This document shows, in pieces, positions 7,174 to 42,885 of a stretch of DNA of 64,000 bases. The notes beneath the pieces were generated by a model, which searched no databases, was not told the origin of the DNA, and was given only the letters and a program-made list of their open reading frames with translations. The translations under genes and the position numbers were made by a program. Position 1 is the first letter of the stretch; every line of letters begins with the position of its first letter. Origin of the DNA: Kiritimatiellia bacterium (GTDB lineage: Bacteria > Verrucomicrobiota > Kiritimatiellia > RFP12 > JBMNHG01); assembly GCA_050950285.1 (NCBI GenBank), contig JBMNHG010000006.1, forward strand, positions 105,167 to 169,166, written 5' to 3'.

Positions 7174-7295
7174 GGCCAAACGCACGTCTTCTTCTCATCC
7201 TTCAGCATCGCCATCGCCTTGTTTCCGGTGTCACGAATTGTGAGGCAACGCGCTCGCGGTCCCATGGGAAATCGATTTCCCCCTTCGGACGCATA

Positions 7296-28015: not shown

Positions 28016-28220
28016 CCATGCGATTGAACCAGCGTATCGCCGGAATGGAAAGTCTTTTTTGGCCATTCCCCACTTTCGGATGGACCGCAAGCGGGAGTTC
28101 CCGTTTCGCAATCCCCGTTTGACACCGTCGGCGTCCGTGGAGTATGCTCGCCGTCGTTGCCGGGCGGCGCCTGCGTCGCCCGGCGGAGTGGCGACGGAGA
28201 CCGCGAAAAGGAAGTACGAC

Positions 28221-29402
28221 ATGCTGCGACGACTGGGACGATTGCGACGGGGCCTGTGTGCGGCAGGGTGTCTGGAATGGTTCTTCCTTGCGCCGGCGGC
28301 GGGCGCCGGGACGCACTTGTCCGGCTGGGCCGACTTCGACGCGCTCGTCGCCGCGGAATACGGCGCGCTCTCGGCTTCGGCGCTCTGCTATCCGCCCGGC
28401 GGAATCCGTTTCGGCATCTCGCATCCGCCGGTTTCCTTCGATCCCGCCGCCTTTGCCGCCTTGACCAACGCGTCGCCGCCCCGGACGCTTGCCGGCGTCC
28501 CGGCCTGGCCGCTGCGCATCGTCGAGACCCAAAGCGCCTCCCGCGTCTGGATCGCAACCGCCGGCGGCCTTCCGGTGCGCACGAGCGCCGTGCCGGCCTA
28601 CGACCCGGAGGCGTGGTCGCGCGCGGCCTACGGGGATCCGCCCGGATGGCTGTCCGGCGCGGACCTGGAACGCTGGTACCGCGAACGCGCCCGCGACCGG
28701 ATCGAACTGGGGCTGACCCTGATTCCCGCCGACCGCTTCGACGAGTACCTGGAGAACCTCCGCTCGGCGGCCACCAACGGGCCGGCCGGCCCCTCCGCCC
28801 CCGTGCCCCCCGCCGACACCAACCGTGTCGCCTTCGCCCTCGTCGCGCCGTCGGATCCGGGCCGCTTCGGCTTCACCCTCTACACCCCCGGCGACCTGCC
28901 GGTGGACATCTTCACGCGGACGAACCCCGCCGCCGGGCCGCTCTGGAACTACGCCGGGACGGTGCAGGCCTCCGCCCCGTTCACCCCCGCCGCCGTGGCC
29001 GCGCCGCACGCCGCCCTCTTCCTCCTCTCCGCGCGCGGCGACATCGACACCGACGGCGACGGCATCCCCGACGGCATGGAACTGCTCCACTTCGGCACGG
29101 ATCCCCTGCTGTGGGACACCAGCGGCGGCGGCCTCTCCGACTGGGTCAAGATCTACCGCTACGGCCTCGACCCGCTCCTGCGCGACAGCGACGGCGACGG
29201 CTACCCCGACGACGAGGAACTGCTGGCCGGCACCGACCCCGCGCAGGCCACGCCCGGGGCGGCCTCCGGCGCCATCCGCTACTACCGCGACGCCGACGAC
29301 CGCCTCACGGCGGTCCATACAGGCATGGACGGCGGGGCGGCCACCGCCGCGCCCACCCCCGCCGGCAACCCCGCCGTGCTGCAGGAGAGGAGCGCGCCAT
29401 GA
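28221..29402 (+). CDS. RHS-associated accessory protein with thrombospondin type-3-like Ca-binding repeats and a terminal YD-like motif
   Basis: The ATG at 28221 follows the RBS aaaaggaag. The sequence contains DIDTDGDGIPDGMELLHFGTDPLLWDTSGGGLSDWVKIYRYGLDPLLRDSDGDGYPDDEELLAGTDP and ends in IRYYRDADDRLTAV. The stop overlaps the RHS start (ATGA). Confidence 0.6.
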   Translation: MLRRLGRLRRGLCAAGCLEWFFLAPAAGAGTHLSGWADFDALVAAEYGALSASALCYPPGGIRFGISHPPVSFDPAAFAALTNASPPRTLAGVPAWPLRIVETQSASRVWIATAGGLPVRTSAVPAYDPEAWSRAAYGDPPGWLSGADLERWYRERARDRIELGLTLIPADRFDEYLENLRSAATNGPAGPSAPVPPADTNRVAFALVAPSDPGRFGFTLYTPGDLPVDIFTRTNPAAGPLWNYAGTVQASAPFTPAAVAAPHAALFLLSARGDIDTDGDGIPDGMELLHFGTDPLLWDTSGGGLSDWVKIYRYGLDPLLRDSDGDGYPDDEELLAGTDPAQATPGAASGAIRYYRDADDRLTAVHTGMDGGAATAAPTPAGNPAVLQERSAP

Positions 29403-32400
29403 AGCTGAGACCGGCACCGCTCCTCGCCCTCCTGCTGCCGCTGGCCGTTGCGACTTCCGCAACCGGAACACCGGAATGGACCGGCTGGCGCGTCAGTGGT
29501 CCCCCGGCCGTGCCGCCGCCGACGACCGGCCCCGTCGTGCGCCCCCTGGCCATGCCGCCCTCCGCGCAACCACCCCTCGCCGTGGCTCCGGATGCGGTCG
29601 TCCCCTGCGGCGCGCCGCAGCCCGTGCCCGCCTCGGGCTGGACGCCGGAACTGCCGCAGAGCGTCCCGCCCGGCGACGGGGAGCTGATCGCCGAGACGGC
29701 GCGCGGCCTCGACTACAATTGGGCACGCTGCTACCTCTTCGTCCGCGACCACATCCGCTTCGCCCCCTCCCCCGGCATCCTGCGGGGCGCCGGGCGCACG
29801 CTGCTCGACCGCGAGGGCAACGCCGCCGACCAGGCGCTGCTGCTCGTGGCGCTGCTGCGCGCCTCGGGATACACCGCCACCCTGATGCACGTCGCGCCCC
29901 CCGCCAATGAATTCGACGGCGGCTTCCGCATCCCGCTCGGCGGCACGGCGGACGGCTACGACGCCGCCGCCTGGCTCGGCTGCGCCACCGGTTCCGCCAC
30001 CGGGACCTGGAGCGACGTGAGCGGGCTGCTCGCCGCCGCCGGCCTGAAGGCCTACTGCGTCGGCTCCGGCGACTCTCCCGCCGGCTACGACGTGCGGCTG
30101 GAGCACTACTGGGCCGGGATCGTGCTCGATGGCTACCTCTACTATCTCGACCCCTGCTTCAAGCCCCGCCGGATCACGCCTCACCGCGACATCCTCGCCG
30201 ATGCCGGATACAGCCGGAGCAGCCTGCTGGCCGCCGCCGGCGGCAGCATCGGCCCCAGCCATGTGCAGGGACTCTCGGCCGGCGCCCTCGGCGCGGCCCT
30301 CGACCAGCTCGCCGCCCGGCTCGCATCCACCTGGCACGCCGCCAACCCAGTGGCCGCGCCACGGGCCTTCATCGGCGGCGACTCGGTCGTGCCGCAGGAC
30401 ATCCACGAGGACGCCTACCCGTTCCACGGAACCGTGGAGGGAGAACCCATCGACTTCCTGACGCAGCCTGACTCCTGGAAGAACGACCGGCGCACGGCGC
30501 TGACCGTCACGCATGGCACGGCCTCGAAAACCCTCTGGCTCGACGAGGTCGCCACGCGGCACGTCTGGATATCCTACACCGACTCCCCCGGCCACGCCTA
30601 TCCCGGGGCCGTCCTGCACGTGGACGACGAGACCGTGCTGGCCGAGTCCGCCGGCTCCGCGCAGGCCGCCGTGACCCTGACCCTGGCCGTCGACCATGCG
30701 TACCCGGACGCCAGCATGTCGGCCCCCTACGACCTCGTCCGCGCCACCACCAACACCTACGTCATCGTCCTCGGCATGGGCGGCGACCATCCCGGCGGCA
30801 TGCGCGCCTGGGCCGCCACCGAACTGGCGCGGGCCCGCGCCGCGGACGGAACCGGCGTGGCAACGCGCGCCCGCGCCCTCCAGTCCGTGGGCCAGCAGTG
30901 GCTGGCGCAGACCGCCCTTGTCAGCGACCTCGCCGGCCGCCTCGGCGGGGTACGCCGGGGCTTCTTCTACAACATCGGCATCGCCGGACAGTCCGGCTCG
31001 CCCTATGTCGACCTCAAGAACTGCTTCACCTACACGGCCGGCGATGCCTCGCGTTTCGGCGGCTACATGCTCTTCGGCAGCGCGCTCGAGCACGCCGTGC
31101 TCGACCAGGTCAACGCCCCGGACGCGCCCGCCGTCTCCACCGTGCGCATCCTCGCCCTGGCCAACGCCGCCGGCACGCCCGTCCACTTCGCCAACCACGG
31201 CAACTACGCCGCGACCGTGCGCCCGCTCCTCGCCAACTACCCGGCCGCGCAGCTCGACGCCTTCGCCACCGCCCTGGCGGCGGGCGGCACACTGCTGCTG
31301 CCCCGTGACGGCACCACCGTCCTCAACCAGTGGCAGGGCACGGGCTGGATCGAGCACGGCCCCTCCGGAGACACCTGGTCCACCGGCATGATCATCTCCG
31401 GCGGTCTGGCGGGCGGCTTCACCTCCAGACCCGGCGATGTCGATCCCGACGCCGTGGACAACGCCCACCAGCCCGCCCGCAACGACAACGCCGCCACCGC
31501 CAAGGAAAGAGCCGCCGACCCCGTCGAGCAGCCCTCCGGAGCCTACGTCTCCGAACACGCCGATCTCGTCATGGCGGGCCCCGCGCCGCTGGCCTGGACG
31601 CGCCACTACGACTCCCGCCGCCGCTTCGACGACGGCCCGCTCGGGCGCGGCTGGACACACGGCCTCGACGCCGCCGTCGTGCGCCACGCCGACCCCGACG
31701 CCCGCTTCGGGCGCGCCGCGCCCGAAGCCGCCGCCCCGACCGCCCTGGCCGTCGCCGTGGCCGACGACCTGCTCGCGGAGCAGGGCACGCTCCCCGCCGG
31801 GGAGGAGGCCCGCCGCCGCACCCTCGCGGCGCTGGTCGCGCAGTGGTGGACGGAACGGCTCACCGGCGGCACGGCCTCGGTACGCCTCGGCGCGCGCGCC
31901 CTGGCCTTCCAGCGCCGCCCCGGCGGCACCTACGCCGCCGCCCCCGGCGTCACCGCCACCCTCGCCGAGACCAACGGCCTCTTCACCCTCGCGGAGCGCC
32001 TCGGCGACACCTACGCCTTCGACGCCGCCGGACGCCTGGCGTCGGTCACCGACCGCTCCGGCAACGCCGTCACGCTGCACTACGGCGCGCAGGGTCGCCT
32101 CGCCGCCGTCTCCAACAGCTTCGGGCGCGCCCTCTCCGTGGGGTGGACCGGCGACCGCATCACTTCAGTCTCCGACAGCGCCGGACGTGCCGTCGCCTAC
32201 GCCTACGACGCCTCCGGACACCTCACCCGCGCCACCGACGCCGCCGGGTTCGCATGGACCGCCTCATACGCGCCCGACGGCGCGCTCCTCTCGCAGACCG
32301 CCCCCGGCGGACACACCACCATCCGCAACTTCTACAACGGCCTCGGCCAGGTCGTCCACCAGATCTCCGCCGCCGGACAGCCGTGGGTCTTCGGCTACGC

Positions 32401-35400
32401 CGCCGGAACCCGCTCATGGGACGCCGACCCCCACGGCCGCCGCGAGGTGCGCGGGCACGACGACGAGGGACGTGTCGTCACCCGCCTCCGCCGCGACGGC
32501 ACGCAGCACGACTACCTCCACGACGGCCACGGACGCCTGACCGCCCACATCGATCCCCTCTCCCGCATCAACCTCTTCGAGTACGACGCCCACGACCGCC
32601 TCGTCCGCTCCGTCCTGGCCGCCAACACGCCCGAGGCCCGCGCCACCGCCTTCGCCCACGACCACCTCCACCGCGTCACCGCCGTCACCAACGCCCTCGG
32701 CCTTGCGACCACCTTCGCCTACGACGACCGCGACCGCCTGATCCTGACGACCTTCCCAGACGGGAGCGCCCTCTCCGGCACCTGGACCGCCGCCGGCCTG
32801 CGCGCCACCGAGACGCTCCTCGACGCCGCCGGACGCACCCTGCGCCACACCACCTTCGCATACGACGGCGGCGGGCGTCCCGCCACACAGACCACGCAGG
32901 GCCGCGGCCTGCCGTCCCCCGTCACCACGGCCACCGGATTCGACGCCGCCGGCAACCTCGTGCGCGCCGAGGACGCCAACGGGCATGTCACCCGCTTCCG
33001 GTACGACGCCCGCGGCCTTCTCACCAACACCACCGATGCCGCCGGACACACTGTCCGCCGCACCTACGGCCCGCGCGGGATGCCCGCCGCCGTCACCGAC
33101 CCCCTCGGGCGCACCACCAGCCTCCTCTGGACGCCATCCGGCGAGCCCGCCGCCGTCCAACTGCCGGACGGCTCGCTCACGACCAACACGTACGACGCCG
33201 TCGACCGCCTGGCCTCCTTCACCGACACGCGCGGCACATGCGTCAGCCTCGACCGCGACGCCGCCGGGCGCATCACGCGCCGCCACACCCCCCGCTGGGA
33301 GGAGCGGACGTGGTACGACACCGCCGGCTGCGCCACCTCCGTCCTCGATGCCGCCGCCGTGCGCACGGACTACGGCCACGACTGGCTCGACCGCCCGGTG
33401 CTGGCGGTAGACGGACTGGACCGCGGCTGGTGGACGGCCTACGACGCCCTGGACCGCGTCACCGCCACCACCGATCCGCGCGGGCGCAGCCGCCAATACA
33501 CCCACGATGCCCTCGGACGCCGCACCGCCGCCATCCGCCCATCCGGCGCGACCGATTCCTTCGGCTACGACGCTCTCGGCAACTGGACCACCCACACCAA
33601 CGCCGAGGGGCGCGTCTATACCATGTCCTACGACGCCCTGTCGCGCCCCCTCGCCGCCACCAACGCCCTCGGTCAGCAGGCCTTTCTCAACGCCTACGAC
33701 CCCGCCGGCAACCTCACCAACCGCGCCGACGGCGCGGGCAACACCGTCCGCTACACCTACGACGCCCTCGACCGGCTGGTGGCGCGGGATGCCTTCAACC
33801 ACGAAGGGCACGAAAAACACGAAACCTTTACCTACGATGCGGTCGGTAATCTCCTGACCGCCTCGAACGAAACGGCATGCCTCTCATTCACCTACGACGT
33901 GATGGACAGGCTGGCCACCGCCACGACCGTCCTCTCAAATGCCACCTTCACCGCCGCCTACGCCCGCGACGCGGGCGGGCTGGTCACCAACCTGGTCTAT
34001 GCCCCCGGCAAAAGCGTTGCGCGCAGCTACGATGCCGACGGGCTGCTCGCGACGGTCAGCGACTGGCTCGGCCACACGTGGCACTTCGCGTGGGACGGCG
34101 CGGGCAAGCCTACCGGCGGCACGTCGCCCGGCGGCATCGCCGCCACCAACCGCTACGACGCGGCGGGGCGTCTCGCATCGTGGTCGGTCGGCACACTGGC
34201 CGGACGCACCGTCACCCGCGACGCGGCGGGACTCAAGACCCGCGAGGATATCACCGCCGGGCCGCACCCCGCGCCTGCCTTCGTGCGCTACGCCACCAAC
34301 ACCTTCGACGCCGCCGACCGCCTGGTGTCGGCCTCTGTGCGCTACGGCTCGCACACCAACGCCCCCGTTGCGGAGACCTACCTCTACGACGGCAACGGCG
34401 CCCTGACCAGCCTCGTATCCGGTTCAAACAGCGTCTTCACCGCCGCCTACTCCCCCCTCGGCCAGCTCTCCTCTCTGCGTCTCTGCGCCTCTGCGTTAAA
34501 CCACTCCTACGATCCCCTCGGCAACCGCCTCATCTCCGGCGAACGCCTCTTCATCCCCGACCATGCCGACCCCCTCAAGCGTCCGCTGATGGAGTGTGAC
34601 CTGTCCGGCAACGTCCTGCGCTACTACCTCTGGGCACCCGGACGGCTGCTCGGCTTCATAGACGCCGCTTCCGGCGCCCTCACCGTGGCCCACTGCGACG
34701 AGTACGGCTCCGTCGTGGCCCTCACCGACGAGGCCGGCAATACGCTCCACACCGCCTGCTACGGCCCGAATGGTCAGGACTGGGGCGCCACCGGCGCCAA
34801 TCCCACGCCCTTCGCCTGGCTTGGCGGGCATGGTGTTCAATGTGTCGCCGTTTCAGAACACCTCGGCCCGCTCTATCTCACCCGTCACCGTCTCTACAGT
34901 GCCAGTCTCCAGCGCTTCCTCTCGCCCGACCCCCTCGGCCTTGCCGGCGGTCTCAACCTCTACGCCTACGCCGAGGGCGACCCGCTCAGCTACATCGACC
35001 CGCTGGGGTTGTGCGGGGAGAGTGTTCTGGGCGCGGCGGCAAGAGGGTTTCTTGAGGGTTTGGGTGGCGGTTTGTCCATCATCGCCAACACGTTTAGTTT
35101 CGGCATGACGGATAGGCTCGGCTTGACGGATTCGGCGTCCTACGAGGGCAGCGAATACACGGTCTCGCGCGTCGCTTCAACAATCGCCCGCGAAAGCGCG
35201 ATCACCGCCGCGACGCTCGGTATCGGCACAGCGGCGCGCAGTGGCTCCGCCGCCGCCCAGACCGCCTACAAGGGCATTCTGGCGGTAGAGGCGGCAACGG
35301 GCGGCTGGCAGTTCGGAACCGGCGCATGGCAACTCTCCGAGGGCGATTACGAGGCGGGCGCCCTGAACATGGCTGCCGGCGGCCTTCGCGTCGGGGGCAG

Positions 35401-35707
35401 CGTCGCAAGCGCGAGGGCGTTTGCGCCGAAGAGCGAAACAACGGTTATAGGCCGTGTTAAAGACCTCCAGAATCTTAGGCCAGGGGAAAAATCGCTTCTG
35501 GATCGGCTGCCAAACCTAGGCAATCCCAAGGCTAATTGGAAGCAAAATTCCGGTGTACTTCGTCAAGAGATGAACCGTGGATTGCCGATTCGAGATGCAT
35601 CTCCGGGTGACACAGGCGGTCAGTTCTTGAATGCAGAGCGGTATCTGCTCAGGGACAGAGGATGGACATTTGATTCGGCGACAAGTAAATGGATGCCTCC
35701 GCAATGA
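29399..35707 (+). CDS. RHS-repeat polymorphic toxin (2102 aa): Sec signal peptide, transglutaminase-like domain, YD-repeat shell, RHS core, C-terminal toxin domain
   Basis: MKLRPAPLLALLLPLAVATSATG is the signal peptide. The shell starts at DPVEQPSGAYVSEHADLVMAGPAPLAWTRHYDS. Dozens of YD repeats follow (YxYDxxGRL/N). The core ends at LYAYAEGDPLSYIDPLGL (about 35010), followed by a 231-aa variable C-terminus. Confidence 0.9.
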   Translation: MKLRPAPLLALLLPLAVATSATGTPEWTGWRVSGPPAVPPPTTGPVVRPLAMPPSAQPPLAVAPDAVVPCGAPQPVPASGWTPELPQSVPPGDGELIAETARGLDYNWARCYLFVRDHIRFAPSPGILRGAGRTLLDREGNAADQALLLVALLRASGYTATLMHVAPPANEFDGGFRIPLGGTADGYDAAAWLGCATGSATGTWSDVSGLLAAAGLKAYCVGSGDSPAGYDVRLEHYWAGIVLDGYLYYLDPCFKPRRITPHRDILADAGYSRSSLLAAAGGSIGPSHVQGLSAGALGAALDQLAARLASTWHAANPVAAPRAFIGGDSVVPQDIHEDAYPFHGTVEGEPIDFLTQPDSWKNDRRTALTVTHGTASKTLWLDEVATRHVWISYTDSPGHAYPGAVLHVDDETVLAESAGSAQAAVTLTLAVDHAYPDASMSAPYDLVRATTNTYVIVLGMGGDHPGGMRAWAATELARARAADGTGVATRARALQSVGQQWLAQTALVSDLAGRLGGVRRGFFYNIGIAGQSGSPYVDLKNCFTYTAGDASRFGGYMLFGSALEHAVLDQVNAPDAPAVSTVRILALANAAGTPVHFANHGNYAATVRPLLANYPAAQLDAFATALAAGGTLLLPRDGTTVLNQWQGTGWIEHGPSGDTWSTGMIISGGLAGGFTSRPGDVDPDAVDNAHQPARNDNAATAKERAADPVEQPSGAYVSEHADLVMAGPAPLAWTRHYDSRRRFDDGPLGRGWTHGLDAAVVRHADPDARFGRAAPEAAAPTALAVAVADDLLAEQGTLPAGEEARRRTLAALVAQWWTERLTGGTASVRLGARALAFQRRPGGTYAAAPGVTATLAETNGLFTLAERLGDTYAFDAAGRLASVTDRSGNAVTLHYGAQGRLAAVSNSFGRALSVGWTGDRITSVSDSAGRAVAYAYDASGHLTRATDAAGFAWTASYAPDGALLSQTAPGGHTTIRNFYNGLGQVVHQISAAGQPWVFGYAAGTRSWDADPHGRREVRGHDDEGRVVTRLRRDGTQHDYLHDGHGRLTAHIDPLSRINLFEYDAHDRLVRSVLAANTPEARATAFAHDHLHRVTAVTNALGLATTFAYDDRDRLILTTFPDGSALSGTWTAAGLRATETLLDAAGRTLRHTTFAYDGGGRPATQTTQGRGLPSPVTTATGFDAAGNLVRAEDANGHVTRFRYDARGLLTNTTDAAGHTVRRTYGPRGMPAAVTDPLGRTTSLLWTPSGEPAAVQLPDGSLTTNTYDAVDRLASFTDTRGTCVSLDRDAAGRITRRHTPRWEERTWYDTAGCATSVLDAAAVRTDYGHDWLDRPVLAVDGLDRGWWTAYDALDRVTATTDPRGRSRQYTHDALGRRTAAIRPSGATDSFGYDALGNWTTHTNAEGRVYTMSYDALSRPLAATNALGQQAFLNAYDPAGNLTNRADGAGNTVRYTYDALDRLVARDAFNHEGHEKHETFTYDAVGNLLTASNETACLSFTYDVMDRLATATTVLSNATFTAAYARDAGGLVTNLVYAPGKSVARSYDADGLLATVSDWLGHTWHFAWDGAGKPTGGTSPGGIAATNRYDAAGRLASWSVGTLAGRTVTRDAAGLKTREDITAGPHPAPAFVRYATNTFDAADRLVSASVRYGSHTNAPVAETYLYDGNGALTSLVSGSNSVFTAAYSPLGQLSSLRLCASALNHSYDPLGNRLISGERLFIPDHADPLKRPLMECDLSGNVLRYYLWAPGRLLGFIDAASGALTVAHCDEYGSVVALTDEAGNTLHTACYGPNGQDWGATGANPTPFAWLGGHGVQCVAVSEHLGPLYLTRHRLYSASLQRFLSPDPLGLAGGLNLYAYAEGDPLSYIDPLGLCGESVLGAAARGFLEGLGGGLSIIANTFSFGMTDRLGLTDSASYEGSEYTVSRVASTIARESAITAATLGIGTAARSGSAAAQTAYKGILAVEAATGGWQFGTGAWQLSEGDYEAGALNMAAGGLRVGGSVASARAFAPKSETTVIGRVKDLQNLRPGEKSLLDRLPNLGNPKANWKQNSGVLRQEMNRGLPIRDASPGDTGGQFLNAERYLLRDRGWTFDSATSKWMPPQ
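33794..33826 (+). repeat. In-frame short tandem element (cacgaaNNg-type, reverse orientation) inside the main RHS gene
   Basis: ttcaaccacgaagggcacgaaaaacacgaaacc encodes FNHEGHEKHET. Confidence 0.7.
34473..34504 (+). repeat. In-frame triple-tandem element (ctctgcg x3 + ttaaa) inside the main RHS gene
   Basis: ctctgcgtctctgcgcctctgcgttaaaccac encodes LRLCASALNH. It matches the intergenic copy at 44127-44158 at 29 of 32 positions. Confidence 0.75.
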
Positions 35708-36285
35708 GCAAGAAACGAGTTACCGACCGAGCTCTTCTTCGCTTTACTGATGAAGTTAAAGCCCGTTTTGCCTTTCTAGAAGCACGAGGCTTTAACTGTG
35801 TCAGCACCGACGTAACGCTTGTGCGATTCGAGTCGCCAGAACTCGGCGTCAACATTTTCCATGGGCGGCAATCATACGAGATTGGACTTGAACTTGAATC
35901 ATTAGTGTCGAAGACTGAGAAATATTCCTTCTCTGAACTTCTTCGCCTTGTCGATCAGGAGCGAGCCGAGTGCTACAGATCGTTTGCCGCGACGAACGCC
36001 GAGGGAGTAGCCGAAGGAGTGCGTCAGTTGGCGGATAGTGTTCAACAGTGTATCGCTGCCGGTCTCTTGGATGATACCGAACTCTTTTCACGTCTCAAAC
36101 GGCAACGTCATGATCTAACCAAAAAACTCTCTCTGGATGTCCAACTCCAGCACGCTCGACGAAAAACTGAAGCTGCCTGGCATACCAAAGACTACGCAAC
36201 AATAGTAAGAATCATGAAACCTCTGCGTACGTATCTTTCGGCGTCTGAAGTTGCAAAGCTGGAGTTTGCCGAGAAGCATATCTGA
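35704..36285 (+). CDS. Putative cognate immunity protein of the main RHS toxin
   Basis: The ATG overlaps the RHS stop (ATGA). It has no signal peptide, is AT-richer than the genome, and occupies the position typical of an immunity gene. Sequence starts MSKKRVTDRALLRFTDEVKARFAFLEARGF... Confidence 0.6.
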   Translation: MSKKRVTDRALLRFTDEVKARFAFLEARGFNCVSTDVTLVRFESPELGVNIFHGRQSYEIGLELESLVSKTEKYSFSELLRLVDQERAECYRSFAATNAEGVAEGVRQLADSVQQCIAAGLLDDTELFSRLKRQRHDLTKKLSLDVQLQHARRKTEAAWHTKDYATIVRIMKPLRTYLSASEVAKLEFAEKHI

Positions 36286-36400
36286 ACCCTCTGTTTTAAT
36301 CGTTCGCCGGAATTAAATGTTGTCATCTTGCCGCAATCATTTAGATGAAGCGAGTGCCTCGCATCACGCTTCGTCACTCGCTGATGACTTTAGTATGATG

Positions 36401-36690
36401 ACAGATATGCAGCAGGTATCGCATAGGCATGTTACGCATCACATCGCAGCATTAGTTGCTGCGATAGTGCTGCCTTTTGCTGTGCTGGCCTATGCGCCTT
36501 TGCCATCCGATGCTTCGGTTTCACCGGCTCGCGTCACTGTAAGCACAGCACCAGTTAGTGATGGTTTCACCTACGACCCTGTCGGCAACCTCACCAACCG
36601 CGCCGACGGCGCGGGCAACACGGTACGCTACGCCTACGACGCGCTCGACCGGCTGGTGGCGCGGGACGCCTTCGGCCACGATGGGCACCA
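36401..36690 (+). repeat. Dispersed repeat copy A (orphan leader plus first YD repeats)
   Basis: About 90 percent identical by eye to 42141-42430, including an exact 78-bp run (36501-36578 = 42241-42318). Confidence 0.9.
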
Positions 36691-36712
36691 AGCTAGCAGA
36701 GAGGAATTATGA
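36407..36712 (+). CDS. Truncated orphan RHS fragment 1: signal-peptide leader plus about two YD repeats, then a premature end
   Basis: MQQVSHRHVTHHIAALVAAIVLPFAVLAYAPLPSDASV...FTYDPVGNLTNRADGAGNTVRYAYDALDRLVARDAFGHDGHQ. It is homologous to the main RHS at about 33700-33800. Alternative in-frame ATGs lie at 36395 and 36398. Confidence 0.6.
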   Translation: MQQVSHRHVTHHIAALVAAIVLPFAVLAYAPLPSDASVSPARVTVSTAPVSDGFTYDPVGNLTNRADGAGNTVRYAYDALDRLVARDAFGHDGHQASREEL

Positions 36713-37344
36713 AGGAAATCGCCCGATTGGAACAAAACGCGCTCTTCAAGGGAAAGCGCCTGTTCATTTTGCAGGACGATGGACACTTGAAAGTCTACTC
36801 GTCATACGGGGGGCGAAAGCAGGAGTTCTTGGTCGATATTGGCCGCCTCAACCCGGAGCCCTTCCGTGATTCGATGTCGGCCAGGCTTTTTATTGCAATC
36901 TTATGTTTTTTTGCGTTGTTGTCGATCTTGTTTGCTGTTCTCATTATCTTGCGTTGGCCAGAACTGGATGCGGATGCCAAGCTAGTTCTTTTTTTGGCTT
37001 TAGGTGTGTTCGGCTTTGGAGCTTTGCTATGCTGGCGCGAGTATCTGCGACAGAGCTACGACACCTATGCTTTTCACGACGTATTCACGGGACAAAGCAT
37101 CATTTTTCTGGCAAATATTCCGTCGGAAGACCTCTTCATGGATTTTGTCAGCAAGCTGCAAGCCGAAATTCGTTCTATACAGAAGCGAAACGCATCTGCC
37201 GCAAGGCTGTCGCTGGTGGAACAGATCGAAGAGCTCGGAAGGCTGAAAGCAGAAGGCTTACTGGATGACGAGGAGTTTGCCAGGGCTAAAAGCAACCTCA
37301 TTGAAGCCTCGCGACTGCCAGCGGCCATAGGGTTCAAACCTTAA
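36709..37344 (+). CDS. Membrane protein with a C-terminal SHOCT-like domain (possible orphan immunity protein)
   Basis: Two TM helices (LFIAILCFFALLSILFAVLIIL, LVLFLALGVFGFGALLCW) and the C-terminal LVEQIEELGRLKAEGLLDDEEFARAKSNLI. ATGA overlap with the upstream fragment. Confidence 0.6.
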   Translation: MKEIARLEQNALFKGKRLFILQDDGHLKVYSSYGGRKQEFLVDIGRLNPEPFRDSMSARLFIAILCFFALLSILFAVLIILRWPELDADAKLVLFLALGVFGFGALLCWREYLRQSYDTYAFHDVFTGQSIIFLANIPSEDLFMDFVSKLQAEIRSIQKRNASAARLSLVEQIEELGRLKAEGLLDDEEFARAKSNLIEASRLPAAIGFKP

Positions 37345-37408
37345 TTGCATTGCTGATTGAACTGTAACAGAAGAATAGAACCATGAAGAACAATCTAGCA
37401 CGGAATTA

Positions 37409-39541
37409 ATGAGGACTTTCGCATACGTCAACAAGGCGAGATATTCCGCGCTAGCCATAATGCTAGTTGCGGTCTTTCCGGTATTTGCTTCTCTTCCGAG
37501 ATACGGCTTTCTAGACACCGATGCCGAGGTCGTCCGTTCCCACAGCGCGGGTAACACGGTACGCTACGCCTACGACGCGCTCGACCGGCTGGTGGCGCGG
37601 GATGCCTTCAACCACGAAGGGCACGGAAAACACGAAACCTTCGCCTACGATGCCGTCGGCAACCTGCTCGCTGCCTCCAATGAAGTGGCGCGCCTGTCGT
37701 TCAGCTACGACGTGATGGACCGGCTGGCCACCGCCACGACCGTTGTTTCAAACGCCACCTTCACCGCCGCCTACGCCCGCGACACGGGCGGGCTGGTTAC
37801 CAACCTCGTCTATGCCCCCGGCAAAAGCATCGCGCGCACCTACGACGCCGACGGGCGGCTCGCGACCGTCTCCGACTGGCTCGGCCACACGTGGCACTTC
37901 GCGTGGGATGGCGCGGGCAAGCCCACCGGCGGCACGTCGCCCGGCGGCATCGCCGCCACCAACCGCTACGACGCGGCGGGGCGTCTCGAATCGTGGTCGG
38001 TCGGTACGCTGGCCGGACGTACCGTCACCCGCGACGCGGCGGGGCGTCTCGAATCGTGGTCGGTCGGTACGCTGGCCGGACGTACCGTCACCCGCGACGC
38101 GGCGGGGCTCAAGACCCGCGAGGATATCACCGCCGGACCGCACCCGGCCCCTGCCTTCGTGCGCTACGCCACCAACACCTTCGACGCCGCCGACCGCCTG
38201 GTGTCGGCGCAGGTGCGGTACGGCTCGCACACCAACGCCGCCGTCTCCGAGACCTACCTCTACGACGGCAACGGCGCTTTAACAAGCCTCGTATCAGGCT
38301 CAAACACCATCTTCACCGCCACCTACTCCCCCCTCGGCCAGCTCTCCTCACTTTTCGTGCCTTTCGTGCCTTTCGTGGTTGAATGCACCTACGATCCCCT
38401 CGGCAACCGCCTCATCTCCGGCGACCGCCTCTTCATCCCCGACCATGCCGATCCCCTCAAGCGCCCGCTGATCGAGGCCGACGCCGCCACCGGCGCGCCG
38501 CTGCGCTACTACCTCTGGGCGCCCGGACGCCTGCTCGGCTTCATAGACGCCGCTTCCGGCGCGCTCACCGTGGCCCACTGCGACGAATACGGCTCCGTCG
38601 TGGCCCTCACCGACGAGGCCGGCAACACGTTACACACCGCCTGCTACGGCCCCAACGGTCAGGACTGGGGCGCCACCGGCGCCAACCCCACCCCCTTCGC
38701 CTGGCTCGGCGGGCATGGTGTGCAGCAGGTCGCCGTTTCAGAACACCTCGGCCCGCTCTACCTCACGCGCCACCGCCTCTACAGCGCCAGTCTCCAGCGC
38801 TTCCTCTCACCCGACCCCCTCGGTCTCGCAGGCGGTTTGAACCTCTACGCCTACGCCGAGGGCGACCCGCTGAGCTACATCGACCCGCTGGGATTGTGTC
38901 CTGAAAACAACTATTGGGAGACAGGCAGTTACCTCGGAGACGTCGGGCAGTTCGTTGCGGGTTACGGTGATGCTATTGCAGGTACGGTCGGTGGTCTCTA
39001 CAATGTTGTGCGCCATCCGATACAGACGGCGGCGGGATTGTTCAACGCTGTTGCTCATCCCGTACAGACAGCCCAGGCTATGGCCGATGGCATAGCCGAA
39101 ACATGGGACAGCGGGAACAGGGGGCGCGGCCAGATCGTCGGCAACACCTTGATCATAGCCGCAACCATCGCCGCACCGCATGCAAAGACAAGTAGCATAG
39201 CGAAAACAGCAAATGCTGCGAAAAGCGGACAAACGTTTGAAATTATTGATGGCGTTCGTAGAGCGAAAGCAGCACAGTCTCTTGGAAAACAGAGTGTGGC
39301 CGCTAATATCTTTAATGCAGATGGCCAGCTTATCGGTCAAGGCAACATTCCAATTAGAGCTTTGACTTCGCCAAACAAGTCGGTAATTGATATGTCCACG
39401 CAAGCCCAATTCGACCGATACATGAGTATCCAGCGTGGTTTGCAAGAGGGTGCAAGTTTACCGCCAATTTCAGTAACGCCTGGTAGTCGTGGCATTCCTG
39501 TCTCAGATGTCATTTTCGACGCAATTGGAGCAGCACAGTGA
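37409..39541 (+). CDS. Orphan RHS C-terminal module 2: own signal-peptide leader, ~450 aa of YD-repeat shell plus RHS core, alternative toxin tip with a ParB/Srx-fold motif
   Basis: MRTFAYVNKARYSALAIMLVAVFPVFASLPR is the leader. Positions 37540-38895 are about 90 percent identical by eye to the main RHS at 33735-35010, including DPLSYIDPLGL. The sequence then diverges, and the tip contains FEIIDGVRRAKAAQSLGKQSVAANIF. Confidence 0.85.
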   Translation: MRTFAYVNKARYSALAIMLVAVFPVFASLPRYGFLDTDAEVVRSHSAGNTVRYAYDALDRLVARDAFNHEGHGKHETFAYDAVGNLLAASNEVARLSFSYDVMDRLATATTVVSNATFTAAYARDTGGLVTNLVYAPGKSIARTYDADGRLATVSDWLGHTWHFAWDGAGKPTGGTSPGGIAATNRYDAAGRLESWSVGTLAGRTVTRDAAGRLESWSVGTLAGRTVTRDAAGLKTREDITAGPHPAPAFVRYATNTFDAADRLVSAQVRYGSHTNAAVSETYLYDGNGALTSLVSGSNTIFTATYSPLGQLSSLFVPFVPFVVECTYDPLGNRLISGDRLFIPDHADPLKRPLIEADAATGAPLRYYLWAPGRLLGFIDAASGALTVAHCDEYGSVVALTDEAGNTLHTACYGPNGQDWGATGANPTPFAWLGGHGVQQVAVSEHLGPLYLTRHRLYSASLQRFLSPDPLGLAGGLNLYAYAEGDPLSYIDPLGLCPENNYWETGSYLGDVGQFVAGYGDAIAGTVGGLYNVVRHPIQTAAGLFNAVAHPVQTAQAMADGIAETWDSGNRGRGQIVGNTLIIAATIAAPHAKTSSIAKTANAAKSGQTFEIIDGVRRAKAAQSLGKQSVAANIFNADGQLIGQGNIPIRALTSPNKSVIDMSTQAQFDRYMSIQRGLQEGASLPPISVTPGSRGIPVSDVIFDAIGAAQ
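37607..37639 (+). repeat. In-frame cacgaa-type element in orphan module 2
   Basis: ttcaaccacgaagggcacggaaaacacgaaacc. Confidence 0.7.
37970..38095 (+). repeat. Perfect 63-bp tandem duplication (2 copies) inside orphan RHS module 2
   Basis: gacgcggcggggcgtctcgaatcgtggtcggtcggtacgctggccggacgtaccgtcacccgc occurs at 37970-38032 and again, identically, at 38033-38095. It duplicates DAAGRLESWSVGTLAGRTVTR. The main RHS has a single copy. Confidence 0.95.
38351..38383 (+). repeat. In-frame triple-tandem element (ctttcgtgc x3 + gttgaa) in orphan module 2. It is the inverted counterpart of the cacgaa-type element.
   Basis: cttttcgtgcctttcgtgcctttcgtggttgaa encodes LFVPFVPFVVE. Its reverse complement matches 37607-37639 at 27 of 33 positions. 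It occupies the position where the main RHS carries the ctctgcg element. Confidence 0.75.
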
Positions 39542-39786
39542 TTATTGAACAGAAGAAGATTGCGGCTATGAAAGCACTGCAATCCGTCATTATCCATGGT
39601 CGTATTATGGCTTACGAGAAGGCGGACTACAATAGAATAGCCGACCTGCTGGATCGCGCTGAATACTTAGCGGGTATGTTTTACGAGAATCGGGATATGA
39701 CGGTGACATTTCGAGAGAACTTGGTTGAAATTGCTGAACTTCACAATTGTGGAATCGCATTAACGCAATTTGACACAAATTGTTGA
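39538..39786 (+). CDS. Putative immunity protein for the ParB-fold toxin tip
   Basis: 82 aa. The GTG start overlaps the toxin stop (GTGA). It is AT-rich and has no signal peptide. Confidence 0.55.
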   Translation: MIIEQKKIAAMKALQSVIIHGRIMAYEKADYNRIADLLDRAEYLAGMFYENRDMTVTFRENLVEIAELHNCGIALTQFDTNC

Positions 39787-40119
39787 TTTTTCGGCAATTA
39801 CGATGAAAGCCTTGTTTTACGAGCTTTACGGGACTTTGACAATTCTGCCCTTCAAGGATCATTTTTCCAAGACGCATCTGTTTGGTATTGCACCCACAAT
39901 TGGACGAGTCGCGGCCAGAATTCATCGGTCTTGCGAAAGGCATTGCGTGACGGTTTCGAGATACACGATGCTTCCGCTCATAGACCGAATTGGTTCCCCA
40001 ATCCTACGTTGCTACGCCCTGATCGGACAGTTGGGCAGAGTTTCTTGGGCGCAGAGCGAAACATCTTGGACAATAAGGGTTTGATTTTGAGTTCCGACGG
40101 AATATATGTACCTAAGTGA
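39787..40119 (+). pseudogene. Start-less relic of a toxin tip homologous to the main RHS C-terminal domain
   Basis: The open frame directly after the stop at 39784-39786 reads FGNYDESLVLRALRDFDNSALQGSFFQDASVWYCTHNWTSRGQNSSVLRKALRDGFEIHDAS...VGQSFLGAERNILDNKGL. The main toxin reads KANWKQNSGVLRQEMNRGLPIRDAS...GGQFLNAERYLLRDRGW. There is no ATG before 39931. Confidence 0.6.
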
Positions 40120-40517
40120 AACCAATGAGCACAACCACGCAGAACGAGTTTGAATACCAGGTTCTCGCCTGTTTTCGGAAACACGCAAACACATTGCGTT
40201 TGTGTGAACCCACATTCAGGAGAGAGGGTTATGTCATTACCGCGACAATGTCGGCAGGGCCATCCGGGAAAGTAGAGCTTCGATATGGTCCTGCCGAGTA
40301 TGTTACTGAAATCTTTATCTACACATCGGCGGACAATAAACGATGGAGTTTGACTGACCTATTGAATAATGAGCAAATTCGCACTTGGATACTTAAAAAC
40401 AAACCGGATATGTCAGGTAGATCTCGTCTTGAGACAGAGATAACCTTTGCGTTTTCTCTTCTGAACGAAGGACTGGTAGATATTCCTGATTTCCACTGGT
40501 TGGCCAGTAAGGCGTGA
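40116..40517 (+). CDS. Putative immunity protein paired with the relic toxin tip (weakly resembles the 35704-36285 product)
   Basis: The GTG at 40116 overlaps the relic stop; an alternative ATG is at 40125. VELRYGPAEYVTEIFIYTSADNKRWSLTDLL compares with VNIFHGRQSYEIGLELESLVSKTEKYSFSELL in the first immunity protein. Confidence 0.55.
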   Translation: MKPMSTTTQNEFEYQVLACFRKHANTLRLCEPTFRREGYVITATMSAGPSGKVELRYGPAEYVTEIFIYTSADNKRWSLTDLLNNEQIRTWILKNKPDMSGRSRLETEITFAFSLLNEGLVDIPDFHWLASKA

Positions 40518-41290
40518 AGATGCAACGTGTTATCGCAGTTTGGCAACAGCTTGCGGCTACAACGATACAGGTCATCGCCGCGTTGTCTCTTTGCGCTACG
40601 ACACCTATGGTTCGTACTGCGGACTGCGGCGTGCATGATTGCTACCACAAATACACGTTCGCCGCCAGCCGGCCATCCGGCGCGGACAACAGCGTCGCCT
40701 ACCGGCCACCGCCATATACCCATCAGCCAAGCGGCGAACTGTACGACACGCTCCTCGATCCGCGCTCCCGCGCCCTGATGCATCAAAACATGCTGCTTCC
40801 CGAAGGCGCCATCGGCACCCCGCTTGGCGACCACATGGCCAAGAGCATGGTAGTGAACACGTTCACAGCTCCAGGCCTCGCCATCATCGGCGAAGGCATA
40901 TCAACAGCAGTGGGAAGGCTTTTCGGCGCGCCAAAGATAAACACTCCTCATGGCGTTGCCATTCAGTCTGGGACGCCGGAAGCTCAAGCCGCATTGCGAC
41001 AAGTCCAAAGTGGCACGACGGTCTATAGGCAGGGGCAACTTGGTTTTCAAAACACAGGGAATGCACAATACTGGTCTTTACAGAACCCCGCATCCACCCC
41101 CAATTACGCCAACCAAATGGGGATGCCTTCTGCCGCCGGTGGAGAGACGTGGATTATGGGGGGACAATTGAAACCCGGGAGTCCTGTCATCACGCGTCCT
41201 GCTCCAGCTATTCCCCCAAATGCTGGTGGAACCATTGAAGCTGTCACTCAACCCGGCGGGGTCAGCATTAACTGGTTCCATATGCCCTGA
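40514..41290 (+). CDS. Free-standing toxin-like protein (no RHS repeats) with an N-terminal hydrophobic segment; family unassigned
   Basis: GTGA overlap with the upstream gene; alternative ATG at 40520. The N-terminus is QQLAATTIQVIAALSLCATTP. The C-terminal ~110 aa read GTTVYRQGQLGFQNTGNAQYWSLQNPASTPNYANQMGMPSAAGGETWIMGGQLKPGSPVITRPAPAIPPNAGGTIEAV. Confidence 0.5.
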   Translation: MKMQRVIAVWQQLAATTIQVIAALSLCATTPMVRTADCGVHDCYHKYTFAASRPSGADNSVAYRPPPYTHQPSGELYDTLLDPRSRALMHQNMLLPEGAIGTPLGDHMAKSMVVNTFTAPGLAIIGEGISTAVGRLFGAPKINTPHGVAIQSGTPEAQAALRQVQSGTTVYRQGQLGFQNTGNAQYWSLQNPASTPNYANQMGMPSAAGGETWIMGGQLKPGSPVITRPAPAIPPNAGGTIEAVTQPGGVSINWFHMP

Positions 41291-41299
41291 GGAGTCAAA

Positions 41300-41689
41300 A
41301 TGCGTATGCCGTCGCAGATAATTACTAGATTGCTTGAAGGCGAACACTTCAATATGGATCAACGAAAGGCTTTAGGTCTTCTTCCTGCAGAGACTTTGAG
41401 CTATGCCGAGGTTCGAGACCATTTAGCACTTCTGCTTGCCGACCGAGAATGGTTCCCTGCTAAGCCTTCTGATTCACACAACACGGATGCGATTCACGAG
41501 GGCATCTTTATTCACCATGTCTCTCCAAACAGGTTCATTTGCTACGCCCGCCGAGCATCAACTGAAAATCCTCTTGTCCTAGCCGAGCAGTCAGCTTGCG
41601 AATTCGGATCGGCACGGGAAGCTGCGGATTACTATCTAAGATGGGAATTGAATCTTCCCGGCCGTTTGGATGGATGGGTCGTTGAGTAG
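41300..41689 (+). CDS. Small cytoplasmic protein, candidate immunity protein
   Basis: 129 aa. The RBS gaggag lies 6-11 nt upstream of the ATG. It is AT-rich and sits directly downstream of the toxin-like ORF. Confidence 0.5.
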   Translation: MRMPSQIITRLLEGEHFNMDQRKALGLLPAETLSYAEVRDHLALLLADREWFPAKPSDSHNTDAIHEGIFIHHVSPNRFICYARRASTENPLVLAEQSACEFGSAREAADYYLRWELNLPGRLDGWVVE

Positions 41690-41697
41690 GCGAACAT

Positions 41698-42057
41698 ATG
41701 ATGAGAAAAATTATGTATCACCCTTCTGATTTGCGCGGCGAAGAAATATCCGCCGTGTGTTTCGTGCGTGATTACGTGGAATTCCATTTTGATGGCGCGA
41801 TACTTCGCAGTCTATCGAATCCGATCATCTTGATTCAGGGCGTAGAACATCGCTTTCCTGAACCTGGTTCGCGTGATGCACTTTGTAAGCTTATCGGTTC
41901 AACGGTTGTAGATGTGACGTTGGAAGAGTTCCAAGCGTTGAAGGTGACTACGACAGACGGCTGCAAAATCACAATTCCACTTGACAACAGGCATCTTCGT
42001 GGTTCGGAAGCTATGCACTTCGTTCCCTACCTTAACGGGCCAATTCAAGTGTGGTAG
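41698..42057 (+). CDS. Small cytoplasmic protein, second candidate (orphan) immunity protein
   Basis: 119 aa, beginning 8 nt after the previous stop, with the same AT-rich composition. Confidence 0.45.
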   Translation: MMRKIMYHPSDLRGEEISAVCFVRDYVEFHFDGAILRSLSNPIILIQGVEHRFPEPGSRDALCKLIGSTVVDVTLEEFQALKVTTTDGCKITIPLDNRHLRGSEAMHFVPYLNGPIQVW

Positions 42058-42140
42058 CTCGCTGACACCCATAGTTCGACAAATGATATTGTCGGTTATG
42101 ATTGGAAGTTTTGCTATTCATTGAGTCTCTAACAGTTTAT

Positions 42141-42430
42141 ACAGATATGCAACAGGCATCGCATAGGCATGTAAAGCATTGCGTCGCAGCATTTGTTGCG
42201 ACGATAGTGCTGCCTTTTGCCGTTCGAGCCTATGCACCTTTGCCATCCGATGCTTCGGTTTCACCGGCTCGCGTCACTGTAAGCACAGCACCAGTTAGTG
42301 ATGGTTTCACCTACGACCTCGCCGGCAACCTCACCAACCGCGCCGACGGCGCGGGCAACACGGTACGGTACGCCTACGACGCCCTCGACCGGCTGGTGGC
42401 GCGGGACGCCTTCAACCACGAAGGGCACGA
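42141..42430 (+). repeat. Dispersed repeat copy B (orphan leader plus first YD repeats)
   Basis: See copy A. Both begin acagatatgca(g/a)cagg. Confidence 0.9.
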
Positions 42431-42761
42431 AAAACACGAAACCTTTACCTACGACGCGGTGGGGAATCTGCTGACCGCCTCTAATGATGCGGCGCGCCTC
42501 TCGTTCAGCTACGACGTGATGGACAGGCTGGTCACCGCCACGACCGCCGTTTCCAACGCCACTTTCTCCGCCGCCTACGCCCGCGACGCGGGCGGGCTGG
42601 TCACCAACCTGATGTACGCCCTCGGCAAAAGCGTCACGCGCACCTACGATGCCGACGGGCGGCTCGCGACGGTCAGCGACTGGCTCAAACGCCCGCTTGC
42701 AAAATCACCACAAAAAGGCCACCATTTCACCGTGATTCAGAGAAATAGTTGGGGGCACTGA
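42147..42761 (+). CDS. Truncated orphan RHS fragment 3: same leader as fragment 1 plus ~150 aa of YD repeats. Homology is broken at 42686/42687.
   Basis: MQQASHRHVKHCVAAFVATIVLPFAVRAYAPLPSDASV...NHEGHEKHETFTYDAVGNLL...RTYDADGRLATVSDWL, followed by the unrelated tail KRPLAKSPQKGHHFTVIQRNSWGH. The ORF-track start at 42102 is a TTG. Confidence 0.6.
   Translation: MQQASHRHVKHCVAAFVATIVLPFAVRAYAPLPSDASVSPARVTVSTAPVSDGFTYDLAGNLTNRADGAGNTVRYAYDALDRLVARDAFNHEGHEKHETFTYDAVGNLLTASNDAARLSFSYDVMDRLVTATTAVSNATFSAAYARDAGGLVTNLMYALGKSVTRTYDADGRLATVSDWLKRPLAKSPQKGHHFTVIQRNSWGH
42411..42443 (+). repeat. In-frame cacgaa-type element in orphan fragment 3
   Basis: ttcaaccacgaagggcacgaaaaacacgaaacc, identical to 33794-33826. 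Confidence 0.7.
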
Positions 42762-42885
42762 AGAGTTGCGGGAGCAACTCGGCAAGAGGTTCATCACCGG
42801 GGTGGTGCTCTACACCGGCAACAATCTGATCCCGTTTGGCGACCAACTCTGGCTCGTGCCCCTGCCGGTCCTGTGGGCGCCGTAA
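42736..42885 (+). pseudogene. C-terminal stub of a DUF4143-type AAA+ ATPase (COG1373-like)
   Basis: FREIVGGTEELREQLGKRFITGVVLYTGNNLIPFGDQLWLVPLPVLWAP resembles the conserved C-terminus of that family. It has no start codon, and a stop lies immediately upstream in frame. Confidence 0.5.

Follow-up and report, generated by a model that had tools for sequence, protein, structure and literature searches.

The 64,000-nucleotide stretch analysed here (hereafter the window; Kiritimatiellia bacterium, GenBank assembly GCA_050950285.1, contig JBMNHG010000006.1, positions 105,167 to 169,166 of the forward strand) carries a full-length RHS toxin gene followed by displaced fragments of such genes, or orphan cassettes, each of which opens with its own start codon and a signal-peptide-like leader. 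Judged from the sequences of the window and its relatives, such leaders are the rule on the cassettes of this clade, and the intact cassettes are most likely, though far from certainly, translated as short RHS toxins targeted to Sec. Taken as a whole, the locus is probably best explained as a Sec-dependent RHS island whose capped cassettes are made and sent to Sec rather than held as silent spares. Classical orphan rhs-CT modules of Salmonella and E. coli lack both translation initiation and export signals (PMC3967940), the baseline from which the original prediction correctly set out. The three N-termini that it had singled out, at ATG 36407, 37409 and 42147, are all present, each a hydrophobic leader in frame with RHS (YD) repeats. 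The cassettes of the window, and the elements tied to their leaders, are as follows.

36345..36406, + strand: type-1 upstream element (alignment of 7 type-1 copies; promoter scan match)
36407..36712, + strand: orphan 1, type-1 leader followed by ∼45 amino acids (aa) of RHS, no toxin
36401..36691, + strand: direct-repeat copy 1, leader and first YD repeats (repeat family D5)
37409..39541, + strand: orphan 2, 710 aa, with type-2 leader, half-shell, core and tip (TIGR03696)
40520..41290, + strand: tip-only cassette with its own hydrophobic leader, MQRVIAVWQQLAATTIQVIAALSLCA…, and no RHS shell
42147..42761, + strand: orphan 3, type-1 leader followed by ∼150 aa of RHS, no toxin
42141..42431, + strand: direct-repeat copy 2, 291 bp

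Leaders were scored with a home-made signal-peptide heuristic that requires an ATG, positive charge followed by a hydrophobic run free of charged residues, and small residues at −3/−1. Within the window it is passed by orphans 1, 2 and 3, the open reading frame (ORF) at 40514/40520 and the main gene, and failed by a cytoplasmic control, the first immunity gene. A cassette-core profile run on all stop-to-stop ORFs of the fetched relatives returned 36 orphan-like cassettes besides 15 main-like genes and 3 ORFs truncated by contig ends. The cassettes carry 26 non-identical leaders, 22 of which combine an ATG with a signal-peptide-like N-terminus. When the upstream DNA of these leaders is shuffled by dinucleotides, 1.3% of trials per leader show this feature, so that 0.33 of the 26 would be expected to have it. 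Among named relatives, Kiritimatiellia and ‘Lentisphaerae’ metagenome-assembled genomes (MAGs) are the closest. In L096 the layout is undamaged: a TSP3 gene and a 2109-aa main gene are followed by immunity genes and then by three short RHS genes (733, 761 and 675 aa) with a small gene behind each.

The search of relatives for the window leaders, which had been proposed as a check, uncovered homologues as well as unrelated signal-like leaders capping cassettes across the clade, in MAGs and in digester metagenomes alike. Type 1, the leader of orphans 1 and 3, has homologues in L007 (two intact cassettes of 707–729 aa), L015, L037/L039, P0011–P0014, P0018, P0025, P0027 and P0028; type 2, the leader of orphan 2, has them in L017/L018, L007 (8699), L033/L034, P0059 and P0063. 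L007 is a Kiritimatiellia MAG of a different species with ∼78% aa identity in the core. Its type-1 cassettes (e.g. M..MQKTWHRRVVHRIATFVATLVLPFSVRAYAPSPFDGSALPARVTVSTSPIREGFTYD) are joined at the same core position as type 1 in the window, and its third cassette carries a homologue of the type-2 leader, MKALAHIDKLRCSVLAIMVVTAFPVFASLPRHRF. Since both leader types occur in the window and in L007, both predate the split of the two species; they recur there at ∼25% nucleotide divergence, open and signal-like. At least 10 unrelated leader families, database matches included, display the layout of charge, hydrophobic run and small residues: type 1; type 2 with a related PL[CFY]A/SIP[RN] group (a slash marks a predicted cleavage site or a junction); MNSFLNRATIVLAAVVVSSVAPSIHA/Y of L008; MRTRSLHS…WPSCG; MRIALT…AAHLAPW; MKK…LCFA; MKCPLIAAFLFSLSAFA; and others.

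A motif of the form A/[SHYFPV][ILV]P stands directly after the hydrophobic run in 31 non-identical leaders, many of them with little else in common, as against 0.9% of control windows. Sites of the narrower form A/[SH][IL]P[RN] lie at 37481–37501, 36488–36508 and 42228–42248 of the window, in L007, L019, L028, L029, L031 and L038, and in many of the database proteins. The narrower motif is absent from the main RHS protein, and among accessory leaders it appears in the L010/P0043 copy only (VSA/SLPV), not in those of L009 or the window. The common A/S-[IL]-P type of motif could serve in cleavage or sorting specifically in this clade, or could reflect an ancient shared origin of the leaders. A lipoprotein signal was considered for the leaders with a Cys near their end (LSLC/A, PLC/A) and rejected, as these are not canonical lipoboxes.

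Conservation of the type-2 leader is concentrated in the RHS frame. The ratio of nonsynonymous to synonymous differences per site (pN/pS) in that frame is 0.29–0.46 for pairs that differ appreciably and 0.65 for the near-identical L007/L033 pair, and in the two other frames it is 0.6–3.5. When leaders were allowed to diverge neutrally by 25% in simulation, ATG, open frame and signal-peptide likeness were kept together in 10–12% of cases; all observed diverged copies keep all three, and none has an indel. No conserved DNA was found upstream of type-2 leaders. Some other leaders are preceded by GGAG-type ribosome-binding sites or by ATGA coupling to the previous gene.

Orphan 2 is the only intact capped cassette in the window. 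Its type-2 leader, MRTFAYVNKARYSALAIMLVAVFPVFA/SLPR, occupies ∼37409–37489, and cleavage is predicted to leave the N-terminus SLPRYGFLDTDAEV…. A half-shell of ∼460 aa (∼37539–38896) ends in YIDPLGL and is followed by a tip of ∼214 aa (38897–39538) with no family match. The protein matches PF05593 (E = 1e-17) and TIGR01643, and TIGR03696 (Rhs_assc_core) at aa 450–496, with YIDPLGL/C as the predicted cleavage motif. An 82-aa gene begins with a GTG that shares the GTGA at 39538 with the stop codon of orphan 2. An AlphaFold2 (AF2) model confidently shows aa 35–470 as RHS beta repeats; for the leader it gives a helix of low confidence, and for the tip no prediction. The sequence of orphan 2 aligns to the last ∼430 residues of RhsP (8h8a), and the model spans about the C-terminal third of single-chain Rhs cores; the shell of the cassette is therefore partial and cannot close alone. 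The model also matches much of the length of the TcC chains 4igl_B, 5kis_B and 6l7i_G, with template modelling (TM) scores, normalised to the target, of ∼0.41–0.44. In a search of 5.8 billion proteins, nearly all of the best relatives of orphan 2 proved to be RHS proteins 550–840 aa long. Of 78 inspected, 32 pass a strict signal test and 44 a relaxed one, many of the failures being partial or mis-started calls. A perfect 63-bp tandem duplication inside orphan 2 (37969–38094) repeats the 21-aa YD unit DAAGRLESWSVGTLAGRTVTR; this unit is single in the main gene (34156–34218, 94% identical), and AF2 confidence is low at ∼aa 191–210.

Orphans 1 and 3 carry the two copies of a direct repeat, 36401–36691 versus 42141–42431. 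The repeat had been described as ∼290 bp at ∼90% identity with a 78-bp exact run; the first two figures hold (291 bp, 24 mismatches, 91.8% identity), and the longest exact run is instead 82 nt (36497–36578). Homology between the copies starts sharply 6 nt before the ATG, and the 150 nt further upstream are 22% identical, as expected of random sequence. The leaders join the core at main-gene coordinate ∼33693 in orphans 1 and 3 and at ∼33726 in orphan 2. Orphan 1, for which the Joint Genome Institute (JGI) gene calls have an alternative start at 36395 (MMTDMQQ), is truncated, ending in …GHDGHQASREEL and a stop codon that overlaps the start of a SHOCT gene (ATGA at 36709); it matches PF05593 at E = 7.5e-9. 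The homology of orphan 3 to the core stops at ∼42690. Both are cut before the DPxGL core and so lack the core domain; truncated and toxin-less, they are relics of type-1 cassettes. The JGI contig L005 (3300061563) joins, at 4207–4833, the 5′ leader of orphan 1 to the body of orphan 3. The crossover lies inside the 82-nt exact run, and the join amounts to a loss of the intervening 5.74-kb block; another contig of that sample, L004, begins inside the run. The hybrid may represent a genuine deletion or a path taken by the assembly.

The two type-1 copies are the only ones that a search of the window recovered. Upstream of type 1 lies an element of ∼55 nt that is kept across species and is absent before orphan 3. 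A promoter scan places a sigma-70-like pair, TCGTCA-17 nt-TATGAT, at 36371–36399; the −10 hexamer ends 7 nt before ATG 36407 and reads TAnnAT in five of the six distinct type-1 copies. By its position this promoter-like element would fit a leaderless transcript. The unit formed by upstream element and leader is found on cassettes with at least 4 toxin tips and 3 core fusion points. The suggestion that the leader is a mobile capping module thus gains some ground for type 1, although the same pattern could come from duplication of a cassette followed by tip swapping.

The hydrophobic segment reported at the start of the 40514 ORF was also seen, with ATG 40520 as the likelier start. This ORF is the fourth cassette of the window. 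Beyond its leader, which is kept in L006 (3944–4471), it resembles the linker that follows DPxGL in P0028 and the toxin ends of P0036 and P0052. An initial interpretation as a short RHS remnant (AASRPSGADNSVAY, repeat family D9) was dropped as uncertain, the three database proteins pointing to linker and toxin. Two further tip-only cassettes with hydrophobic leaders lie in L007, at 6658–7293 and 7581–8276; their bodies match, respectively, the tip of the main RHS protein of the window and the tip of the L007 cassette 3993–6116. Leaders have thus also been joined to bare toxin tips.

Could the leaders be the remains of a second full-length gene? For type 1 this was rejected by protein searches of public data: phmmer against 1.84 billion representatives returned only four cassette fragments and no full-length protein, as the original prediction would have it, and a word-indexed search across 5.8 billion proteins gave no match beyond the fragment of the window itself. 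The latter search returned nothing for the type-2 leader. An exact and wobble DNA pattern of the type-1 leader had no match in the GTDB representative genomes, among which the source genome is not included. Descent from another full-length gene holds only for the leader of L010 9866–10822 (‘Lentisphaerae’ MAG), where the signal peptide and ∼10 mature residues of the TSP3 accessory gene (compared with L009 87–1283) are joined in frame to the core at DALDRL, without the whole front of the main gene. This fusion is a visible example of how a cassette can gain a leader. In P0034 (582 aa, ENA contig of 3.9 kb) a main RHS protein has an in-frame internal deletion that joins its signal peptide and ∼145 N-terminal residues to the late core at …LLDRD/AAGRITRR…; this deletion may be real or an assembly artefact.

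These observations suggest that the locus is an island of Sec-dependent RHS polymorphic toxins, in a bacterium of the Kiritimatiellia/Lentisphaerae group with high G+C. The trafficking module would be a Sec-type signal peptide alone, short enough to be present on each displaced or alternative C-terminal cassette; we think that the cassettes are capped because trafficking needs only such a leader, which is easily gained and kept. A complete cassette would comprise a start codon with a leader of ∼25–30 aa, in which positive charge and a hydrophobic stretch precede small residues at −3/−1 and often A/S-[IL]-P; the last 40–45% of the RHS shell with its autoproteolytic DPxGL core; a toxin tip that varies; and a translationally coupled immunity gene. 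Such cassettes would be made as short RHS toxins and directed to the Sec translocon, with no wait for recombination into the main gene, and the common core would still permit recombination with the main gene and among cassettes, shuffling tips and leaving debris. Orphans 1 and 3 are now direct repeats around a 5.7-kb block and able to delete it, and orphan 1, with its promoter-like element and coupling, may now serve mainly as an expression platform for downstream genes. The anatomy, conservation, statistics and core-domain presence described above are direct results; translation, Sec targeting, signal cleavage, toxicity and all events after arrival in the periplasm are inferred. The original prediction proposed that the orphans may be independently expressed and exported as mini-RHS toxins. 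This is possible for orphan 2 and does not extend to orphans 1 and 3, which are toxin-less (orphan 3 also lacks the promoter-like element); in the window, such a role is left to orphan 2 and the tip-only cassette.

A number of observations weigh against the expression and export of the cassettes. A half-shell cannot enclose a toxin as full RHS cocoons do, which makes stability, safety of the producer and delivery problematic, and two of the three copies originally flagged, orphans 1 and 3, are plainly dead. Several type-1 copies, both window copies included, have Pro at +1 of AYA/P, and Pro at this position blocks E. coli signal peptidase I; a VxA/YAP site two residues earlier would sidestep the problem. 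No Shine-Dalgarno sequence precedes the type-1 and type-2 starts of the window, whereas the neighbouring immunity genes have one. Codon-level constraint on type 1 is weak (pN/pS 0.4–1.0), and the cassette core could owe its conservation to gene conversion from the main gene, not to selection acting on the short proteins. The signal-peptide call itself rests on the home-made heuristic. Finally, the NCBI annotation uses shorter internal starts for all three orphans; these cut into the leaders, and automatic annotation consequently hides the feature. The NCBI forms are of 81 aa from MLPFAV, 693 aa from MLVAVF and 173 aa from MPSDAS. JGI gene calls include the leaders (105 aa and 710 aa).

Several of these points are shared by an explanation in which the cassettes are silent recombination spares, and the leaders are historical scars of joins to the 5′ ends of genes for secreted proteins, carried along by duplication or gene conversion and unused. 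L010 displays just such a join, P0034 links a main N-terminus to late core, type-1 pN/pS is near 1 for some pairs, the dead orphans 1 and 3 have nonetheless retained their leader, and Shine-Dalgarno sequences are missing from the window starts of both types. What scars would not readily account for is that at least 10 unrelated families keep the layout (22 of 26 leaders versus 0.33 expected), that both window types stay open, indel-free and signal-like after ∼25% divergence when ∼10% would do so neutrally, that type-2 pN/pS lies at 0.3–0.45, that the type-1 upstream element is conserved and that no parent gene was found for type 1. We consider silent spares improbable. A chance origin, with low-G+C junction DNA happening to encode an ATG and a hydrophobic peptide, would draw on the G+C content of the leader DNA (∼47%), since low G+C favours hydrophobic codons. 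The shuffles mentioned above keep composition and still give the feature in only 1.3% per leader, and homologues in other species retain it; on these sequence comparisons chance can be taken as effectively refuted, with a probability close to nil.

The cap might also serve mainly to drive the downstream immunity genes, which promoter, start codon and translational coupling would keep switched on as protection from neighbours, the signal peptide only routing an unshielded, otherwise dangerous toxin fragment out or to degradation and the short RHS proteins not being weapons. Stop/start overlaps tie the SHOCT gene to orphan 1 (36709) and the 82-aa gene to orphan 2 (39538), toxin-less orphan 1 retains promoter-like element and coupling, and in Gilliamella of the bee gut orphan toxin domains without secretion domains have been read as a means to acquire linked immunity genes for defence (PMC8125069). 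Left unexplained, however, are a shell of ∼460 aa, an intact DPxGL core and full tips in dozens of short RHS proteins, as well as leaders on tip-only cassettes, and plain promoters before the immunity genes would suffice; this role too strikes us as unlikely to be the main one, with a chance well below one in five. Less probable again, to the point of being a long shot, is a split cocoon, in which half-shells pair after export with a partner that provides the N-terminal half, so that one chassis serves several toxins. It would fit the match of the orphan 2 model to the TcC chains (4igl_B, 5kis_B, 6l7i_G; TM ∼0.41–0.44) and the TcC-type protein from an orphan locus of Yersinia entomophaga that is packaged by the same shell partner (PMC11067744). 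Junctions also cluster at two narrow points of the core, as for a structural boundary, but the edge of a common recombination handle explains this as well. No RHS gene for an N-terminal half only was seen in the local DNA, that is the window and L096, the main gene is complete, and tip-only cassettes carry leaders too. Tc proteins, TcC included, are not known to have Sec leaders. We return, then, to capped cassettes that are translated and exported. In its furthest form, which we put forward only tentatively and think rather unlikely, the orphan array would be a battery of toxins deployed all at once. A compact, transferable cap, made up of a promoter placed for a leaderless transcript, a start codon and a Sec signal peptide that bears a shared A/S-[IL]-P-R cleavage or sorting motif, would turn any displaced half-shell, and even a bare tip, into a toxin exported on its own, and the half-shell may be a TcC-like module completed in trans.

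The cassettes can be compared with several known systems. Like classical orphan rhs-CT/rhsI modules (Koskiniemi et al. 2014, PMC3967940; Jamet & Nassif 2015, PMC4436062), they lie downstream of a full-length rhs gene and combine a fragment of similar core with a variable tip and an adjacent immunity gene, the core permitting recombination and deletion (cf. the L005 hybrid). Unlike these, nearly every cassette here has an ATG and a conserved signal-like leader, and type 1 also has a promoter-like element. The Sec-exported RHS toxins of the WapA type (B. subtilis, S. suis) share the N-terminal Sec signal as export route, in place of PAAR/VgrG and a type VI secretion system (T6SS), and the combination of shell, tip and immunity; WapA proteins are full length with a wall-binding region, which sets them apart from the cassettes, and the S. 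suis WapA orphan (CT2) has no signal peptide, an incomplete core and no activity in competition (PMC12704120). The TcC components of ABC (Tc) toxins likewise unite part of an RHS shell with an aspartyl autoprotease core and a toxin that varies, in a separate gene of which several alternatives are possible per genome (PMC11067744), and the orphan 2 model resembles them structurally. TcC requires TcB to close the cocoon, a partner not seen here (window, L096), and its shell is of ∼660 aa versus ∼435–460 aa here. In the parts of the Zhang et al. 2012 survey considered here, which concern Sec/T2SS-class polymorphic toxins and ‘standalone toxin cassettes’ (PMC3482391), the signal peptide is one trafficking mode and cassette arrays have adjacent immunity genes; the same parts set cassettes apart from ‘complete active toxins’ identified by secretion markers and do not describe arrays of cassettes systematically equipped with signal peptides on half-shells. 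No earlier description of signal-peptide-capped orphan arrays was found in the literature searched, the coverage of which is incomplete.

The standard view of RHS, contact-dependent inhibition (CDI) and Maf loci holds downstream cassettes to be silent until recombined, and it rests on systems linked to type VI or type V secretion with large trafficking modules. In the lineage studied here trafficking appears to need a signal peptide of ∼25 aa only, and cassettes carry a leader in many independent families across species. If capped cassettes are expressed, one cell would field several toxins simultaneously, a partial RHS shell would suffice for some useful step, and annotation pipelines would be mis-starting or discarding real toxin genes. 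Were the array indeed a battery of toxins, recombination would diversify active genes and would not be a prerequisite for using orphan toxins. The capped cassettes offer a testable system for what the RHS shell is needed for. They also raise the question of how Sec-exported RHS toxins leave a cell of the Planctomycetes-Verrucomicrobia-Chlamydiae (PVC) group with a probable outer membrane; members of this group are mostly diderm, and a step for crossing the outer membrane would be needed.

The remaining genes of the island are listed below.

28221..29402, + strand: accessory TSP3 gene, 393 aa, N-terminal hydrophobic leader (PF18884 TSP3_bac, E = 2e-14)
29399..35707, + strand: main RHS toxin gene, 2102 aa (Pfam RHS_repeat and DUF6531; start codon checked)
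33693..35013, + strand: core part common to the main gene and the cassettes (repeat families D1, D3, D4 and D8; BLAST of L005/L004/L001)
35689..36285, + strand: presumed immunity gene of the main toxin, 198 aa, without leader (ORF and position; called in all JGI contigs)
36709..37344, + strand: SHOCT membrane-protein gene, 211 aa (PF09851 SHOCT, C-terminal, E = 1.8e-6)
39538..39786, + strand: presumed immunity gene of orphan 2, 82 aa, GTG start
40125..40517, + strand: immunity-like small gene, 130 aa, kept beside the tip-only cassette in L006
41300..42057, + strand: two immunity-like small genes (41300–41689 and 41698–42057), the second with a homologue directly 3′ of a main RHS gene in L006

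The main RHS protein opens with the Sec-like leader MKLRPAPLLALLLPLAVATSATG; further along it has a weak transglutaminase-like match, DUF6531, YD repeats (PF05593, RHS_repeat, E = 6e-92), a DPLGL core end with the same DPxGL autoproteolysis motif as in orphan 2, and a C-terminal tip. Family scans found no PAAR domain in either the main protein or orphan 2, and neither is thereby marked as a T6SS effector. The true start of the main gene is ATG 29399, not the start of the long open frame; the resulting 2516-aa ORF, which takes in the frame upstream (28157–29398), was rejected as a high-G+C artefact, the real genes being the TSP3 gene in another frame and the main gene. The accessory TSP3 protein is 67% identical to L009 87–1283, and the gene also precedes the main RHS gene in L096. 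It starts with a hydrophobic, Sec-like leader, yet fails the signal-peptide heuristic. The part of the main gene at 33693..35013 has ∼90–92% nucleotide identity to the cassettes, and in the composition profile G+C falls from ∼0.75 to ∼0.65 where this common core starts; the core probably acts as a recombination handle.

Stop and start codons overlap by 4 nt at three places in the island, joining the accessory gene to the main RHS gene (ATGA, 29399–29402), orphan 1 to the SHOCT gene (ATGA, 36709–36712) and orphan 2 to the 82-aa gene (GTGA, 39538–39541), which suggests translational coupling along it. Gene order and these overlaps would fit toxin-immunity pairs; the tips and immunity-like genes have no Pfam, NCBIfam or PADLOC family match. 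The SHOCT protein, possibly an immunity protein, stands alone in its cluster at 90%. A scan of flanking genes, which covered some of the window's genes, found no T6SS parts; the genes in question have housekeeping roles (HtpG, a fusion of homocysteine S-methyltransferase and MTHFR, RsmB and others). No Rfam family was found in 35.0–43.5 kb of the window, and no tRNA gene anywhere in it. The window is also represented by JGI metagenome contigs at 99.7–99.9% identity. Downstream of orphan 3, at 42993–43628 and 43632–43967, lie AbiEi, which is full length, and an adjacent AbiEii that is N-terminally truncated, matching profile positions 159–264 of 270 only. Between them and the cut end of orphan 3, an open frame at ∼42762–42885 ends in …GVVLYTGNNLIPFGDQLWLVPLPVLWAP and a stop codon and resembles the tail of another truncated gene that abuts the cut end.

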